Assembly: GCA_028282585.1 (NCBI GenBank)
Contig: JANQHR010000115.1
Span: forward strand, 1 to 33,884
DNA length: 33,884 nucleotides
Direction: 5' to 3'
DNA from: Bacteroidales bacterium
GTDB taxonomy: Bacteria > Bacteroidota > Bacteroidia > Bacteroidales > UBA12077
Shown here in pieces: positions 19,336-29,472 of the stretch. The notes below the pieces were generated by a model, which searched no databases, was not told the origin of the DNA, and saw only the letters and a list, made by a program, of their open reading frames with translations. The stretch's first letter is position 1. Each line of letters starts with the position of its first letter. A program made the position numbers and the translations under genes.

Positions 19336-21723
19336 TCAGGCTAAATCTTTAATTGTATTGGTAGGATTTATGCTTGCATATTTATAAGAAACTATGATTA
19401 CTACTAGTACTCCTGAGCAGAGCACGAGAATACCAGAAATAACAAACACAGAAAAACCAATATCTATTTGATAATGAAAGCTTTTCAACCACTCCTTTAT
19501 CATAAAAAACACAATTGGACATGATATTATAAAAGAGAACAAGATCCATTTTACAAACTTGTTTGCTAATAAAACTAGAATATTTAATCTGGATGCGCCT
19601 ATTACCTTACGAATTCCTATTTCCTTTTTCCTTTTTGAAGCAATGAAAGAAGAAAATGCAATTACACCTAGTAAGGAAATAAAAACTGCAATGAATACAA
19701 ACGTTTTTAGTACATAACCTAATATTCTATCAGATCTATAAAGAAAGTTAATATTATCGGTTATAAAACTAGCTTTGAATGGCCAGTCTGTTGTTATACT
19801 TTTCCAATACTTATTTAATTTTTCAGTTACCTCTTTTATATTTTCCTTTTTTGCTTTAACAATAATATTTGTCTTGCCCCACTCAGATAATCTAAACACC
19901 ATTGGTTCCAAAGAATATTTTAATGATGAAAAATGAATATCATCTATAATTCCAATTACTTTTAGATGATCGCTACCCGTTTGAGTAACTTGATTTATTC
20001 CATTAATTAATATTTCTTGCGAAGTTGTTCCTAGGGCTGTCAAACTTGATTTTGTTAAAATAACAGCTGATGAATCTGATGATAATTCAGGTTTAAAATT
20101 CCTTCCTTCAATAAAATTAGCTTCAATTGTTGATAAAAATCCATACTCTACTAAAGTATAACCTAACTGTACCGCATCCTGTCTGTTTTTTTCTTTAGGA
20201 AAAAACTTCAAGCACATACTATAACCATTTGGAGGAATGTCATAACCCCCGCTTATTTTCTCTATTTCTGGTAAATTATTGGCCTCCTCTAGAATAATAT
20301 TATAGCGATTGATCATATTTTTGTCATATGGATTTTCTACATGAATTAAACCATAGTGATTAAATCCAAGTTCCTTTTTATCCAAGTACTCAATTTGCAT
20401 TAGTACCAAAACAGTGCTAATTATAAGAGAAATTGCTATTGTAAATTGTAAAATTATAGGTAAGTGCTTTAAATAATAATTAAAATGTTTTATAGAATTA
20501 TCACTTTCTTTATTTAAACTTACCACGGGTTGATTTGATAAAACATAAGATGGATAAAATCCTGATCCAAAAGTTAATAATACAGCTAAAATAAATAAAT
20601 AAATTAAGTTATTAGTCCATGAAAAGTTAATGTCTAAGTTTGTGATGTGTTTAAAGTAATTGCCTCCAAATTGTATTAAGATTATTGATAAAATAGAAGC
20701 CACCAAAACAATCAAAAATGTTTCAACAAGAAATTGAGTTAATATATTAATTTTCTGAGCTCCTAAAGATTTTCTTAAACCAATTTCTCTTTTCCGGTTT
20801 ATATAATTTGAAAGCGATAAATTAATAAAGTTAAAACATGCCAATGCGATTATTATTATAGCTATAATAGAAAATCCATATACATTTACAATATTCCCTT
20901 TTTTAATTATATCTTTTTTTATGTGAGCTGATTTGAGATGGGCATTTTCAAATTTATCTAACTTAAAATCCATAACTGATGATACATAGTCACCTCTATG
21001 CTTTTGAATAAATTCGGGGAATTTATTTTGAATATTTGCTGCATTATTCTTTTCATTTAATAAAAGATAAAAATATGCATATGCATAATTCCAATTATCC
21101 AGAATACAATTATCAATTATTTTCAGCGAAGAAATTGATCCAATATAATCAAAATCAAAACTTGATGCTTCCGGAATATTATTAAATACGCCTTTTATAA
21201 CAAAATCATGAACATTATTAATAGTAACTGTTTGGTTGATCGGATTATTTGATCCGAAAAGCTTCTCAGCAGTTTTTTGTGAAATAATTAGCTGGTTTGG
21301 ATTGGATAAAACTTCTGTAGGATCTCCACTTATTAAACTAAAGCTGAACATTTTAAAAAATGTATCATCAGCGAGAAAAATCCGGTCTTCAAAAAAATTA
21401 TTATCTCCTTTTTTAATTACGCAGTTATCCCACGGATAAACTCTACAAACATCATCAATCCCAGGAAATTCTTTTAATAACAGATCATAATATTTAGCTG
21501 GATGATTTACATATTCTTCTTTAGTTTCTTTCGTAACTCCAATAAGCCTATATATATTATCATAATTTTTATGAAACTTATCAAATTTTATTTCGGCTAA
21601 TACATATGTTACTATGATTGTACATGTTGCAGCAGCTAAAGCCAAACCAATTAAATTAATTAAAAACGTAGTTTTATTCTTTAAAATTGATCTAAAAGCC
21701 GTTATAACATAATTATGTAGCAT
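19336..21723 (-). CDS. MacB/FtsX-family ABC permease, last gene of the RiPP-like operon
   Basis: 795 aa; INLIGLAL; RKREIGLRKSLGA; RKKEIGIRKVIGAS; C-terminal INP; 15 nt from the upstream exporter gene. Confidence 0.9.
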   Translation of the reverse strand: MLHNYVITAFRSILKNKTTFLINLIGLALAAATCTIIVTYVLAEIKFDKFHKNYDNIYRLIGVTKETKEEYVNHPAKYYDLLLKEFPGIDDVCRVYPWDNCVIKKGDNNFFEDRIFLADDTFFKMFSFSLISGDPTEVLSNPNQLIISQKTAEKLFGSNNPINQTVTINNVHDFVIKGVFNNIPEASSFDFDYIGSISSLKIIDNCILDNWNYAYAYFYLLLNEKNNAANIQNKFPEFIQKHRGDYVSSVMDFKLDKFENAHLKSAHIKKDIIKKGNIVNVYGFSIIAIIIIALACFNFINLSLSNYINRKREIGLRKSLGAQKINILTQFLVETFLIVLVASILSIILIQFGGNYFKHITNLDINFSWTNNLIYLFILAVLLTFGSGFYPSYVLSNQPVVSLNKESDNSIKHFNYYLKHLPIILQFTIAISLIISTVLVLMQIEYLDKKELGFNHYGLIHVENPYDKNMINRYNIILEEANNLPEIEKISGGYDIPPNGYSMCLKFFPKEKNRQDAVQLGYTLVEYGFLSTIEANFIEGRNFKPELSSDSSAVILTKSSLTALGTTSQEILINGINQVTQTGSDHLKVIGIIDDIHFSSLKYSLEPMVFRLSEWGKTNIIVKAKKENIKEVTEKLNKYWKSITTDWPFKASFITDNINFLYRSDRILGYVLKTFVFIAVFISLLGVIAFSSFIASKRKKEIGIRKVIGASRLNILVLLANKFVKWILFSFIISCPIVFFMIKEWLKSFHYQIDIGFSVFVISGILVLCSGVLVVIIVSYKYASINPTNTIKDLA

Positions 21724-21738
21724 AAATTTGAAATATTG

Positions 21739-23349
21739 TTAGATTGTAATTACTTTATCTGCGTTTGAAAACGAACTTTTACGATGCGTAACGAAAATTG
21801 TGATTTTATTTTTCCTTATCTCCCTAAGGGCTTTAAAAATTCTTCTTTCCGTTTCCTCATCAATTTCCGATGTCATTTCATCAATAAGTAAAATTGCCGG
21901 ATCTGTTACAATTGCCCTTGCAATTGCTAATCGTTGTTTCTCTCCCCCAGAAATACTTCCATTAAATGCACCCAGATCAGTATCATATCCATTTGGCATT
22001 TTTTCAACCACATCTTTTAATTGCATATTATTTATTACAGAAACAATATCTTCATTATTTACTTTTCTGTCTAATTTTATGTTATTCCATAAGGTATCAG
22101 AAAAGATTAATGCATTTTGAGGAATTAGTACAATTTGTTTATTATTACCTGTTTCCGGATCCAAATGAAACTCAATATCTCCACTTTCAGCTACAAGTAA
22201 ACCAGATAAGATTTTTAACAATGTACTCTTACCATAACCGGATGGAGAATTGATACATGTAAAGTCTTTTAGCTGAACATCCATTTTATAATCTTTAAAG
22301 ATTTTCTCATTATTATCGTATCCAAAATTCAAGTTATTAATAACTAGTCTGTTTACCTTTTTATTTGTAATAACTTTCGGTAAATCCTTCCTGGATGAAG
22401 AATCCATATTTTCTATCTCCTTGATCCTGTTATAAGCCACAAAAATAGACTGAACCTGTTGATTAATTCCCATTAATCCCTCTAGTGGTGATATAACATA
22501 ACCTAAGAAACTATTTAGTGCAATTAGTTCTCCTATTGACAACTTTCCATTAATAACAAGATATCCGCCATACCATAGTATTGATATAGTTCCCAAAGAT
22601 GCAATACTATTTCCAATAATACTGCTTAATGAAATTAACCTAATATTTTTCATGAAAACATTTATAGCATTACTCCATGTAATATCTATTTGATTAACTT
22701 TTAAAGATTCAATAAATAAAGTTTTTACCTCAACAATCCTTGAAACGGTTTCATCTAATAAACCACTAAGTTTTGCATTTGCCTCTCTTGATTGTTCATT
22801 TCTTTCCCTTATTTTTGGGTTTAGATACTTAATTACAATTACATAAAAAGGTATCAAAACAGTAACAACAATACCTAACTCAACACTGAAATAATAGGTA
22901 AATCCTATTCCAACAACAAAAAGTAAAAGGTTTGTAAGCATTTGAACCATATTTTCAAATGCATCACCTAAATCAAATGCATCACTAAGAATTCTACTAA
23001 ACCAATATCCTGATTGATTTTTTTGTATTTCTTGATAATCAGACCTTAATAACTTACCGAAAGCATTTAAACCCAGCTTCCATGAAATTTTCTGGGAAAG
23101 AAGCGAAGAAAAAATGGTTCTTATAAAATCCATTAGTTGGCCGAATATAAGTATTCCAATAAGCACAAGACCAAGAACATTTAACATACTTAAATCTTCT
23201 GCTGGTATAATCGAATCAATAAAGTACTTTGTAAATAAAGGCATTGGTATTTCTAATAAAACAGAAGCCAGAATCGCAAATAAGCTTATTAAACTAATCT
23301 TAGGAAAAATCTTAAATGCGATATTATATAAAATTTTAGCCTTATTCAT
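21739..23349 (-). CDS. ABC exporter (TMD + NBD) without a C39 peptidase domain
   Basis: N-terminal ABC membrane domain; Walker A SPSGYGKS; signature ISGGEKQR; Walker B LLIDE; H-loop VTHR; only 536 aa. Confidence 0.92.
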   Translation of the reverse strand: MNKAKILYNIAFKIFPKISLISLFAILASVLLEIPMPLFTKYFIDSIIPAEDLSMLNVLGLVLIGILIFGQLMDFIRTIFSSLLSQKISWKLGLNAFGKLLRSDYQEIQKNQSGYWFSRILSDAFDLGDAFENMVQMLTNLLLFVVGIGFTYYFSVELGIVVTVLIPFYVIVIKYLNPKIRERNEQSREANAKLSGLLDETVSRIVEVKTLFIESLKVNQIDITWSNAINVFMKNIRLISLSSIIGNSIASLGTISILWYGGYLVINGKLSIGELIALNSFLGYVISPLEGLMGINQQVQSIFVAYNRIKEIENMDSSSRKDLPKVITNKKVNRLVINNLNFGYDNNEKIFKDYKMDVQLKDFTCINSPSGYGKSTLLKILSGLLVAESGDIEFHLDPETGNNKQIVLIPQNALIFSDTLWNNIKLDRKVNNEDIVSVINNMQLKDVVEKMPNGYDTDLGAFNGSISGGEKQRLAIARAIVTDPAILLIDEMTSEIDEETERRIFKALREIRKNKITIFVTHRKSSFSNADKVITI

Positions 23350-23364
23350 TGATTACTGTTTTAA

Positions 23365-28905: not shown

Positions 28906-28997
28906 TTGATTAAAAATTTAGTTAATAAATTAAGTTTTAAGACAAGATGAAATTAGGAATGACTGAACTAAAATCCTATAAAAAGAATCTTTGTTAT

Positions 28998-29027
28998 ACT
29001 AACGGTTTAAATAAAGCAATAAGCGGT
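28998..29027 (-). promoter_or_regulatory. LytTR-binding direct repeat (9-12-9)
   Basis: Minus strand ACCGCTTAT-N12-ACCGTTAGT. The second copy matches [TA][AC][CA]GTTN[AG][TG] perfectly, the first with one mismatch. Confidence 0.75.
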
Positions 29028-29124
29028 TTGATTTTATGATTAAAGCTATCTTTTTGTTCTAAAACAAACATATAATGGGTGTTTCAACTTCTTTAAGGTA
29101 TTTTAACTCCAACTGAAGTGATTC

Positions 29125-29472
29125 TTACATATGTGAAAACAATGACTGTAATACTTCCTTAAATTCTTCCTTTTTTCTTCTTGATATAGGTAACTCAATA
29201 TCATTTATCATGATAACTTTTGGTTCTTTACCTAAAGAATAACTCTTAATAAAATTGGAATTAACCAAGTAGTTTTTATTAATACGTAGAAAATTCGATT
29301 TAACCAGTACATTTTCTACTTCCTTTAAAAGTTTGGTAATTACAATATTGGTGTTATCAACAAAGTATAGGGTAGTATAACAACCTTCCCCTAAGCAATA
29401 CAACAATTCTGTTATATCTACCTCTTTGTAATTATTTCTACTAACCGGTATAAATATTTTCCTCTTCCCCAT
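29125..29472 (-). CDS. Stand-alone LytTR DNA-binding domain protein
   Basis: 115 aa; LKEVE..L..SNFLRINKNYLVN; ELPISRRKK; no receiver domain. Confidence 0.88.
   Translation of the reverse strand: MGKRKIFIPVSRNNYKEVDITELLYCLGEGCYTTLYFVDNTNIVITKLLKEVENVLVKSNFLRINKNYLVNSNFIKSYSLGKEPKVIMINDIELPISRRKKEEFKEVLQSLFSHM

Follow-up and report, generated by a model that had tools for sequence, protein, structure and literature searches.

This locus raises the question of what a block of seven co-oriented genes in a Bacteroidales bacterium (GCA_028282585.1) makes, and how it came to lie where it does. The window analysed is the whole contig JANQHR010000115.1, 33,884 nt long, and the block occupies positions 19336-29472 of it in the order LytTR regulator, precursor, two radical SAM (rSAM) enzymes, DUF3857-transglutaminase-fold protein, ABC exporter and FtsX/MacB-type permease (Table 1). 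The initial annotation had proposed a new RiPP pathway here, and all the ORFs were found on the minus strand at the limits it claimed. The intergenic gaps, from the LytTR gene to the permease, measure 219, 149, 22, 12, 15 and 15 nt, so that the spacing of 12-22 nt given for the five enzyme and transport genes is exact. The block most likely makes a small Cys-cross-linked peptide using two radical-SAM enzymes.

Table 1. Position, strand and basis of the features recognised in the window
Feature	Coordinates	Strand	Basis
Inserted island, ~10.5 kb, containing exactly the seven-gene cluster	19211..29739		blastn against empty sites
Duplicated FtsX/MacB-type permease (ADOP-like), 795 aa	19336..21723	-	PF12704, two PF02687
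ABC exporter half-transporter (TMD+NBD), 536 aa, without N-terminal C39 peptidase	21739..23349	-	PF00664 20-289, PF00005 352-494
Signal-anchored helical (TPR-like) + DUF3857 + transglutaminase-fold protein, 795 aa, putative periplasmic leader peptidase	23365..25752	-	PF12969, PF01841
rSAM2, 468 aa, rSAM1 paralog	25765..27171	-	44% identity to rSAM1
rSAM1, 472 aa: RRE-like N-domain, radical SAM core, SPASM with 7 Cys	27194..28612	-	Pfam PF04055, PF13186
Terminator/attenuator-like hairpin, precursor to rSAM1	28698..28753	-	fold, z -2.54
Precursor peptide gene, 47 aa, MEILKFDALKKKKQKESKPKVTAGIQKPTITQGKAATLTCGSTGCCG	28762..28905	-	ORF, conserved family
Candidate LytTR box: direct repeat AAACCG-N15-AAACCG with a period of 21 bp	29003..29029	-	pattern search
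Putative regulator of the cluster: stand-alone LytTR DNA-binding protein, 115 aa	29125..29472	-	PF04397, E 2.6e-17, residues 16-108

A clean insertion and its rare relatives

The cluster was inserted cleanly, as a 10.5-kb block, at a site that is empty in 20 of the 24 genus relatives, where the flanking genes stand 622-843 bp apart compared with 11,185 bp in the window. When the window is compared by blastn with the empty site in G041, the closest relative within the genus, whose flanks are 88% identical in nucleotides to those of the window, the alignment ends at 19210 and restarts at 29740; a second empty site (G008) places the breakpoints at 19212 and 29733. No member of the family was found in 400 other genomes of the order, and rSAM homologs number about 8 in 5.8 billion proteins. 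Among 171 loci, the combination of rSAM, transglutaminase-fold (TGase), ABC and FtsX genes was observed only in L011 (sub-locus L002 included) and L012. These two clusters share the order rSAM-TGase-ABC-FtsX and contain a single rSAM gene instead of the pair, with the rSAM 40%, the ABC protein 49% and the permease at the cluster end 34% identical to those of the window. An ortholog of rSAM1 at 71% identity was detected in ENA, in the same data source as a partial TGase ortholog at 69%, and for rSAM2 no homolog above 46% identity was found in the 5.8 billion proteins.

The tiny ORF that had been noticed ahead of the enzymes proved genuine, as ORFs of the same family lie upstream in L011 (six) and L012 (two) and three more members are database proteins; the neighbourhoods of the rSAM homologs thus do carry a conserved small ORF. 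The family signature is a MEILKFD start followed by a Cys and then Gly-Cys-Cys near the C-terminus, and when 1.84 billion representatives were searched with a profile, 7 of the 11 hits were family members. In the window the cysteines are Cys40, Cys45 and Cys46, in ...TLTCGSTGCCG, and the core is shorter, with 14 residues past the conserved Gln-Gly region against about 25-32 in the relatives. Gly-Cys-Cys and one upstream Cys are the only residues invariant throughout the precursor cores. Judged by dN/dS, which is below 1 (0.2-0.77) in eight of nine precursor pairs and 1.3 for one L011 copy, the family appears to be under purifying selection. Nine precursors searched against the NCBIfam models gave zero hits.

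The hairpin reported behind the precursor was borne out as an interrupted stem of 19 pairs with a U-rich tail, starting 8 nt past the stop codon (28764-28762); the 158-nt stretch that contains it has a minimum free energy of -32.2 kcal/mol, and 2 of 200 shuffles were equally stable. In L011 and L012, each of the four precursor genes tested is followed by a perfect hairpin of 12-16 bp with a U-run.

As the gene order and the small-ORF family are seen again in two other genomes, they represent more than chance and support the RiPP reading, and we regard the locus as very probably a real RiPP cluster. That the rSAM/SPASM enzymes instead mature a protein, in the manner of anSME and QhpD, with the small ORF incidental, is highly improbable: the small-ORF family stands alongside the rSAM gene in all three available clusters, with an invariant leader and Cys motif, a signal of purifying selection and terminator hairpins of its own, and an RRE-like N-domain typically marks enzymes that modify peptides. 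Such a role would draw on the anSME and QhpD models, which score 100-129 bits, below their thresholds, and on SPASM-made thioether cross-links in proteins, which are known (PMC13692751).

Twin radical SAM enzymes and the probable cross-link

Both paralogs preserve the motifs of rSAM/SPASM enzymes. The CX3CX2C motif (C98/C102/C105 in rSAM1), FFGGE and the seven SPASM cysteines are invariant in eight of eight clade members, both twins included, so that rSAM2 also retains FFGGE and every cluster-binding Cys. The initial annotation had assigned an N-terminal RRE domain to these enzymes; a beta3-alpha3 fold with the RRE topology is predicted at residues 8-73 of rSAM1, and the Pfam PqqD/RRE model was not detected in rSAM1 or rSAM2, so the assignment stands as a predicted fold and lacks the family hit. 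The AF2 model of rSAM1 is of moderate quality (pLDDT 70, and below 50 around the Fe-S loops).

The best PDB match of rSAM1 is CteB (5WGG/5WHY), both by sequence profile (E 3.4e-48) and by full-length fold (E 7e-16, TM 0.61-0.68), and the highest-scoring curated models for both rSAMs are those of thioether synthases. Nevertheless, every NCBIfam score lies under its cut-off: for rSAM1 and rSAM2, respectively, PapB gives 186 and 176 bits against 340, the SCIFF maturase 150 and 147 against 425, the Bacteroidota GG-type TIGR04148 85 and 83 against 300, DynA 97 and 104 against 450, and RumMC 96 and 86 against 720. No curated NCBIfam family claims either rSAM or the precursor, and the statement that the genes fall outside the named known families, with DarB also sub-threshold, was upheld. 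Since both enzymes are far under every curated cut-off, the reaction type is not transferable by homology.

With the ranthipeptide systems of CteB/SCIFF (thermocellin) and PapB (freyrasin), the window shares the RRE-like N-domain, rSAM and 7-Cys SPASM arrangement and a short precursor with C-terminal Cys. Those systems come from Firmicutes, whereas the host here belongs to Bacteroidales, and the window cluster has in addition the DUF3857-TGase, the FtsX permease and a second rSAM. Their precursor motifs are six Cys in 45 residues and CX3D repeats, and both are absent from the window precursor, whose three Cys include a vicinal pair following a Gly and whose leader begins, unlike theirs, with MEILKFD. 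The Bacteroidota GG-leader systems (TIGR04148) belong to the same phylum and also place an rSAM/SPASM gene beside a short Cys-containing precursor, and one such precursor in Prevotella jejuni (L021), next to an rSAM 30% identical, shares the leader element E-I-L-x-F-D; the window leader, however, has no Gly-Gly, and the ABC exporter has no C39 domain that would cleave it. Two adjacent paralogous rSAM/SPASM genes by the precursor are likewise found for thuricin CD (TrnC/TrnD) and ruminococcin C (RumMC1/RumMC2), but these Firmicutes systems have at least two precursors, whereas the window has one precursor for two enzymes and its sister clusters have one enzyme. According to PMC12093266, TrnC and TrnD act as a complex.

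On balance we lean towards Cys-derived thioether chemistry, given that the invariant core residues are Gly-Cys-Cys and one upstream Cys, that thioether synthases are the best matches in both sequence and fold, and that SPASM domains with seven Cys are reported for CteB, Tte1186 and QhpD in part of PMC10352776. A RiPP pathway whose enzymes do something else, such as C-C or C-O cross-linking, epimerisation or a new reaction at Gly-Cys-Cys, is unlikely on these same observations. It would nonetheless agree with the wide margin by which the curated thioether-synthase models are missed, with the long branch that sets off the clade of eight rSAMs (SH-aLRT 100, quick tree), and with the many reactions catalysed by CteB-related SPASM enzymes, for Foldseek also returns TigE, anSME, ChlB and SuiB; a review passage (PMC10288494) cautions that rSAM chemistry is unpredictable unless identity is very high.

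Leader removal, transport and regulation

In the claim of a complete pathway, processing by the transglutaminase-like protein and export are presumed roles. The transglutaminase-fold protein carries a hydrophobic N-terminal segment (residues 1-21) and a Cys485-His527-Asp542 triad invariant in eight of eight aligned proteins. For its AF2 model (pLDDT 76), the best PDB match is 3KD4, a "putative protease" (Foldseek E 3.6e-35, TM 0.76 on the target), which spans about residues 200-795 at 13% identity with a weak sequence match (E 4.5e-4). That entry (BDI_1141, Parabacteroides distasonis) is alike in fold, but it is a structural-genomics structure without known function or rSAM context, and the window protein has an additional N-terminal helical region.

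Only tentatively do we take this protein for the leader peptidase. Its gene lies directly 3' of the rSAM gene(s) in all three clusters, the ENA source of the 71% rSAM1 ortholog also includes its 69% partial ortholog, the triad is intact, and the cluster has no other protease, the ABC protein being without C39. Lasso-peptide leader peptidases, described in part of PMC10885120 as transglutaminase-like Cys proteases, provide a precedent in which a Cys-His-Asp enzyme of this fold likewise serves a RiPP cluster without another protease. The likeness is at the level of the Pfam superfamily; the same text presents B2 (McjB-type) enzymes as small, cytoplasmic and partnered by an RRE, whereas the window protein is large, signal-anchored and fused to TPR-like and DUF3857 regions. 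The points first named and the lasso precedent count against its being an envelope module with the ABC and FtsX proteins, for immunity or for peptide cross-linking or anchoring, with the leader cut by an unlinked protease or kept, which we consider rather unlikely. In favour of such a module, TPR+DUF3857+Transglut_core proteins occur widely across many phyla with no rSAM link and are annotated as hypothetical proteins, no published function for DUF3857 proteins was found in literature that mentions them in passing, and no conserved GG/GA-type cleavage motif between leader and core is recognisable in the aligned precursors.

The best NCBIfam hit of the ABC protein is TIGR01193 (peptide cleavage/export ABC), aligned from model position 160 onward only. 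A strict Walker A/signature regex found no ABC motifs in it, and by eye variant forms are visible (S-x4-GKST, ISGGE). The permease scores under the cut-offs of TIGR03434 (186 bits) and DarB (117 bits against 700), and tblastn finds about three dozen paralogous matches, none above 31% identity, elsewhere in the genome. A duplicated MacB_PCD+FtsX permease in a Gram-negative rSAM-RiPP cluster recalls DarB of darobactin export and the MacB-type and ADOP permeases, but the island has no DarC-like adaptor or DarD-like ATPase, and Pfam disclosed no ATPase partner for the permease in the cluster or the window.

By Pfam the LytTR protein lacks a receiver domain, and its gene, which lies within the island, is not kept in L011 and L012, where HTH-type proteins of 80 and 87 aa occupy that position. 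The regulator box claimed upstream was recovered as one candidate direct repeat, 98-124 nt before the precursor ATG, and is statistically weak: it is the sole match in the window against 0.13 expected, the choice of pattern was post hoc, and at least one match at up to one mismatch appears in 12 of 100 shuffles. The LytTR consensus was not enriched (48 matches against 42.9 expected), and the candidate box is not conserved in the relatives. Peptide-pheromone and bacteriocin loci are commonly under LytTR factors. Together with the regulator gene adjoining the precursor and the 21-bp-spaced repeat, this would suit a quorum-sensing-type signalling peptide feeding back through LytTR rather than an antimicrobial. 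We hold that to be unlikely, as the island contains no sensor kinase or receiver domain and the relatives have a different regulator type; moreover, the six diversified precursor copies in L011 would fit antagonistic peptides better, and an FtsX-type permease would suit immunity or efflux.

From the observed gene content, conservation and insertion we infer, step by step, a mechanism, and with it the chemistry, protease role and bioactivity of the cluster. The LytTR protein would control the precursor promoter, and the hairpin would terminate most transcripts, with a fraction reading through into the five-gene operon, which would leave substrate in excess of the enzymes. The MEILKFD leader may dock on the RRE-like N-domain of both paralogs, and 5'-deoxyadenosyl radical chemistry would link the thiols of Cys40, Cys45 and Cys46 to carbons of neighbouring residues, yielding sactionine- or ranthionine-type thioethers, with the twins serving separate sites or forming one complex. 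The ABC half-transporter would then carry the modified peptide over the inner membrane, the signal-anchored Cys-His-Asp enzyme may cut off the leader in the periplasm, and the permease would export the product from there or give the producer protection.

More distant rSAM relatives (28-32% identity) likewise adjoin Cys-rich short ORFs, which places the cluster as a rare offshoot within a known and very large class. In summary, it is probable that this genome horizontally acquired a biosynthetic island of ~10.5 kb encoding a RiPP of a rare, uncurated family that works as proposed above, and the cluster apparently represents a very rare, undescribed branch of the well-known rSAM/SPASM RiPP pathway type.

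Gene layout and intergenic elements

The cluster consists of seven consecutive ORFs on the minus strand, and ORF calls returned exactly the outer limits that the initial annotation had drawn. From the LytTR gene to the FtsX gene, the intergenic gaps measure 219, 149, 22, 12, 15 and 15 nt.

Features of the cluster and of neighbouring regions of the window
Feature	Position	Strand	Size	Description
LytTR protein	29472-29125	-	115 aa	PF04397, E 2.6e-17
Small ORF, precursor	28905-28762	-	47 aa	
rSAM1	28612-27194	-	472 aa	Radical_SAM + SPASM
rSAM2	27171-25765	-	468 aa	Radical_SAM + SPASM
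TGase-fold protein	25752-23365	-	795 aa	DUF3857 + Transglut_core
ABC protein	23349-21739	-	536 aa	ABC_membrane + ABC_tran
FtsX permease	21723-19336	-	795 aa	MacB_PCD + two FtsX domains
Hairpin	28753-28698	-		19-pair interrupted stem, U-rich tail
Candidate regulator box	29029-29003			AAACCG-N15-AAACCG
Bacteroidetes-type motif	29072 and 29734	-		TAnnTTTG
Direct repeat	28806-28854		22 nt	27-nt spacing, inside precursor gene
ArsR-type HTH gene	29824-30123	+		
M1 peptidase gene	7223-9142	+		C-terminal Por_Secre_tail
Second FtsX permease	109-2487	-	792 aa	

The hairpin described earlier between the small ORF and rSAM1 is present, 8 nt past the stop codon of the small ORF. The 158-nt stretch that holds it has a folding z of -2.54, with 2 of 200 shuffles equally stable; the long stem emerged from folding, the terminator scan of the window having returned only a 5-bp sub-stem on the plus strand. 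In the relatives, a perfect 12-16-bp hairpin followed by a U-run was found after all four precursor genes tested, matching the hairpin of the window. The proposed regulator box is the weakest of the elements, as its sole candidate, although found nowhere else in the window, was picked once the sequence had been inspected. The LytTR consensus showed no enrichment in the window (48 matches, 42.9 expected), and in DNA this AT-rich the sigma-70 scan carried no information (74 sites, 69.4 expected). The two copies of the Bacteroidetes-type motif are candidates for a promoter role.

The precursor family and the twin radical SAM enzymes

The small ORF is a gene, and the support for this is good. The initial annotation had read the cluster as a RiPP pathway and had proposed to inspect homologous rSAM neighbourhoods for a similar short ORF; these loci do carry conserved small ORFs, in favour of that reading. 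As expected of RiPP clusters, a short precursor is co-located with the enzyme, in one copy in the window, six at L011 (a contig of the genus relative G016) and two at L012 (a Bacteroidales MAG contig). Precursors of all three clusters share the leader and the Cys motif, and three further members occur in the database. The L011 rSAM is the closest homolog within the same genus, at 40% identity. Upstream of it lie six small ORFs whose products open with MEILKFD, or with that sequence changed at one residue, and close with a Cys, a spacer, Gly-Cys-Cys and a short variable tail. Downstream of this rSAM gene come, in the order seen in the window, the genes of a DUF3857-TGase protein, an ABC exporter and an FtsX permease, and L012 presents the same gene arrangement with its two precursor-type ORFs. 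When the seven window proteins were compared with 171 loci by tblastn, an rSAM gene with TGase, ABC and FtsX neighbours turned up only at L011 and L012.

A profile built from nine precursor peptides and searched against 1.84 billion representative proteins at E<=0.001 gave 11 matches, seven of which belong to the family (three new ones, three known from L011/L012 and the precursor of the window itself); the remaining four, with E values of 1e-4 to 7e-4, are long proteins with no relation to it. The nine precursors matched no NCBIfam model, even at E<=10. Codon comparison gave dN/dS values of 0.2-0.77 in eight of nine pairs and 1.3 in the remaining one, which is only supportive because the sequences are short. 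The direct repeat inside the window precursor gene encodes two similar leader heptapeptides (K-P-x-x-T-x-G), pointing to an internal duplication. At L011, the six precursor copies stand in tandem about 580 bp apart (8734-12476), and two minus-strand ORFs between copies (10980-11108 and 11973-12101) are similar to the RRE-like N-terminal part of the L011 rSAM, so that the duplicated unit apparently took in the 5' end of the rSAM gene.

Radical SAM/SPASM peptide maturases are defined by a CX3CX2C motif for the radical SAM cluster and, at the C-terminus, by a SPASM domain whose seven to eight Cys hold two auxiliary clusters. Both twins display the CX3CX2C motif and the SPASM domain (PF04055 E 2e-20 and 2.2e-18; PF13186 E 5e-7 and 1.8e-10), and they are paralogs with 204 of 462 positions identical (E 2e-148). 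The FFGGE motif and the seven SPASM cysteines are kept by both and are invariant across an eight-member clade, in all eight members of which C98/C102/C105, C341, C359, C404, C407, C413, C416 and C436 are conserved. In a quick tree, with SH-aLRT as its only support measure, this clade received 100% support, and within it rSAM2, rSAM1 together with its 71%-identical ortholog P0002, and the single-rSAM clade form a trichotomy. In the clade alignment, all five enzymes of the single-rSAM clade (P0004-P0008) carry a short C-terminal extension with a terminal Cys, which is absent from rSAM1, rSAM2 and P0002; the extension correlates with the one-enzyme and two-enzyme lineages, and its Cys might serve as an eighth ligand or as a handle.

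The RRE is an N-terminal, PqqD-like winged helix of beta3-alpha3 topology. No PqqD domain (PF05402) was detected in either rSAM by Pfam at E<=0.01. The AF2 model of rSAM1, which has a mean pLDDT of 70 and poorly modelled Fe-S loops, places strands at 8-12, 17-22 and 27-32 and then helices at 33-43, 48-55 and 59-73, and in this block (pLDDT 71-90) the three-strand, three-helix N-domain at residues 8-73 is predicted to have RRE topology. The closest solved relative is CteB, by profile search (E 3.4e-48) as well as by Foldseek (E 7e-16), which aligned the rSAM1 model over its full length (454-472 columns, TM 0.61-0.68).

Rarity and insertion of the cluster

A search of 5.8 billion clustered proteins with rSAM1 gave, the query aside, only seven above 38% identity; rSAM2 is among these seven, and the next match falls to 34% (E 6e-62). 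No relative of rSAM2 is closer than 46%, and for the TGase-fold protein the one close relative, a partial sequence, stands at 69%. The rSAM gene occurs in one of the 24 genus relatives (G016), and no rSAM match at E<=1e-60 was found in 400 other genomes of the order, drawn from 236 genera. A metagenome scan yielded no further family member; its best full-length match reached 31% (L092), and another locus (L095) matched at 41% over residues 86-418 beside a different precursor. DNA encoding P0002, P0004, P0006 or P0008 did not turn up in the scan. Among sequencing runs, no RNA run was listed as carrying the locus, and the one DNA run that carries it may be the source of the window itself.

The cluster is a genomic island. 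Of the 24 genus relatives, 20 have an empty site, with both flanking genes, a polyprenyl synthetase and a 6-pyruvoyl-tetrahydropterin synthase, on one contig 622-843 bp apart; in the other four they are on different contigs, and in the window the distance is 11,185 bp. Nucleotide homology with the closest relative stops at 19210 and restarts at 29740, indicating that the inserted block comprises only the cluster, its regulator and the region upstream. Neither an integrase nor a tRNA was seen at the island, nor any repeat or duplication on its flanks. In G016 the site equivalent to that of the window is empty, and the homologous cluster lies elsewhere, on a 13,755-bp contig whose ends overlap by 60 nt; this overlap could represent a circular element or an assembly artefact. 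The ArsR-type gene, which diverges from the right edge of the island, belongs to the conserved flank and not to the island. Elsewhere in the window, the M1 peptidase ends in a type IX secretion sorting domain, which fits a Bacteroidota host.

Partner proteins, named systems and the proposed pathway

The TGase-fold protein belongs to the transglutaminase-like cysteine protease superfamily (PF01841, E 1.9e-9), and its triad of Cys485, His527 and Asp542 is invariant in all eight aligned proteins. Its layout comprises a helical region, DUF3857 and the transglutaminase core, and its N-terminal hydrophobic segment (1-21), preceded by Arg-Lys, suggests that the bulk of the protein lies outside the cytoplasm. 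Its model (pLDDT 76) matches only one solved structure well, the structural-genomics 'putative protease' 3KD4 (E 3.6e-35, TM 0.76 on the target), and its neighbours in the ESM Atlas are 'hypothetical proteins' of the widespread TPR+DUF3857+Transglut_core type. In the ABC protein, Walker B reads ILLIDE, and the variant Walker A and signature motifs fall outside the strict regex but are visible in the translation. The FtsX permease is kept at the end of all three clusters and has about three dozen paralogous tblastn matches elsewhere in the source genome, at 23-31% identity. No ATPase partner for it was found in the island or the rest of the window, which holds no MacB/LolD-type ATPase; the second permease at the left end of the window is also a duplicated FtsX protein.

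The cluster falls in none of the curated families tested. The best NCBIfam models are the thioether-forming maturases PapB and SCIFF, and all of the 77 and 66 families matched by the twins score far under the curated cut-offs. For the PapB-family ranthipeptide maturase (NF047865), rSAM1 and rSAM2 reach 186.4 and 175.6 bits against a cut-off of 340. The earlier statement that the cluster matches neither SCIFF, the GG-leader systems of Bacteroidota nor darobactin holds in each case. SCIFF precursors are defined by six Cys in 45 residues; the window precursor has three, and the twins score 150.4 and 147.1 bits for TIGR03974 (cut-off 425). GG-leader systems are defined by a leader ending in Gly-Gly and by an ABC exporter with a C39 peptidase, whereas here no GG was found at the leader/core junction of the precursor family, TIGR04148 gave 84.8 and 83.3 bits against 300, and the ABC membrane domain begins at residue 20, with the TIGR01193 alignment starting from model position 160. 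A Prevotella jejuni relative shares the E-I-L-x-F-D leader element with the window family, but its leader ends in Gly-Gly. As for the darobactin/dynobactin type, DynA gave 97 and 104 bits against 450 and DarB 117 against 700, and no DarBCD-like adaptor or ATPase genes occur in the cluster.

Short Cys-rich ORFs also adjoin more distant rSAM relatives (28-32% identity), which come from Cloacimonadota, Ruminococcus, other Bacillota, Bacteroides and Prevotella, so the window system is a rare, separate branch within the large thioether-type rSAM-RiPP group and does not stand outside it. At two loci with rSAM relatives at 30-32%, in a Ruminococcus MAG (L014, 8757-9910) and a Bacillota MAG (L015, 5206-6095), four to six tandem short ORFs stand upstream; they form a different Cys-rich family, whose three Cys lie close to the C-terminus, and this is apparently an uncharacterised RiPP family of its own with multiple precursors.

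In the pathway that we infer, the LytTR protein would control the cluster, the leader would dock on the RRE-like N-domain of the rSAM enzymes, and Cys-to-carbon thioethers would form on the precursor, with the twins dividing the labour or forming a complex. In sactipeptides the Cys sulfur is joined to the C-alpha of the acceptor, and in ranthipeptides to C-beta or C-gamma. The ABC protein would then export the peptide, the TGase-fold enzyme would remove the leader in the periplasm, and the FtsX permease may serve efflux or immunity. The leader peptidase role is proposed because the leader peptidases of lasso-peptide pathways are transglutaminase-like cysteine proteases, according to PMC10885120, and because no other protease is present and the ABC protein has no C39 domain. 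A Gln-Lys isopeptide made by the TGase-fold protein had also been considered, from the T-x-Q-G-(L)-K pattern in nine precursors, and was dropped as the main reading, as the database family members P0125 and P0127 have no Gln.

Literature searches found no description of the cluster, none of the MEILKFD peptide word, no relevant paper on DUF3857 by title and opening of the abstract, and none combining radical SAM, RiPP, Bacteroidetes and transglutaminase. A Bacteroidales RiPP-mining paper mentions neither transglutaminase, FtsX nor LytTR (PMC10352776). 'Undescribed', as the initial annotation suggested the cluster may be, thus holds only as far as these searches and the NCBIfam and Pfam libraries go, because large rSAM-RiPP survey supplements, namely the tables of PMC10352776, PMC10288494 and the rSAM-RiPP atlas cited by PMC10288494, could list the family.

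The cluster overturns nothing in current understanding, and what makes it interesting is a precursor family that is rare, enzymes that come as twins, a putatively periplasmic partner with a transglutaminase fold, and an island with clean edges. New cross-link chemistry and narrow-spectrum antibiotics abound among rSAM/SPASM RiPPs, and to our knowledge very few have been characterised from Bacteroidota. The compact precursor core holds three Cys, two of them vicinal; homologous precursors served by one enzyme (L011, L012) and by two (the window) provide a natural experiment; and the cleanly bounded 10.5-kb unit could be transferred whole to a heterologous host. For the large family of DUF3857-transglutaminase proteins, the cluster also suggests a candidate function, which would be the first. 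A bolder reading, which we consider improbable, is that it is the founding example of a new Bacteroidales RiPP class, in which the diverged twins install two cross-link types or a new Gly-Cys-Cys reaction on a core of about 14 residues and a DUF3857/transglutaminase-fold enzyme finishes the product outside the cytoplasm. If that were true, the widespread 'hypothetical' DUF3857/TGase family would gain its first function, as a periplasmic RiPP leader peptidase or a true peptide transglutaminase.
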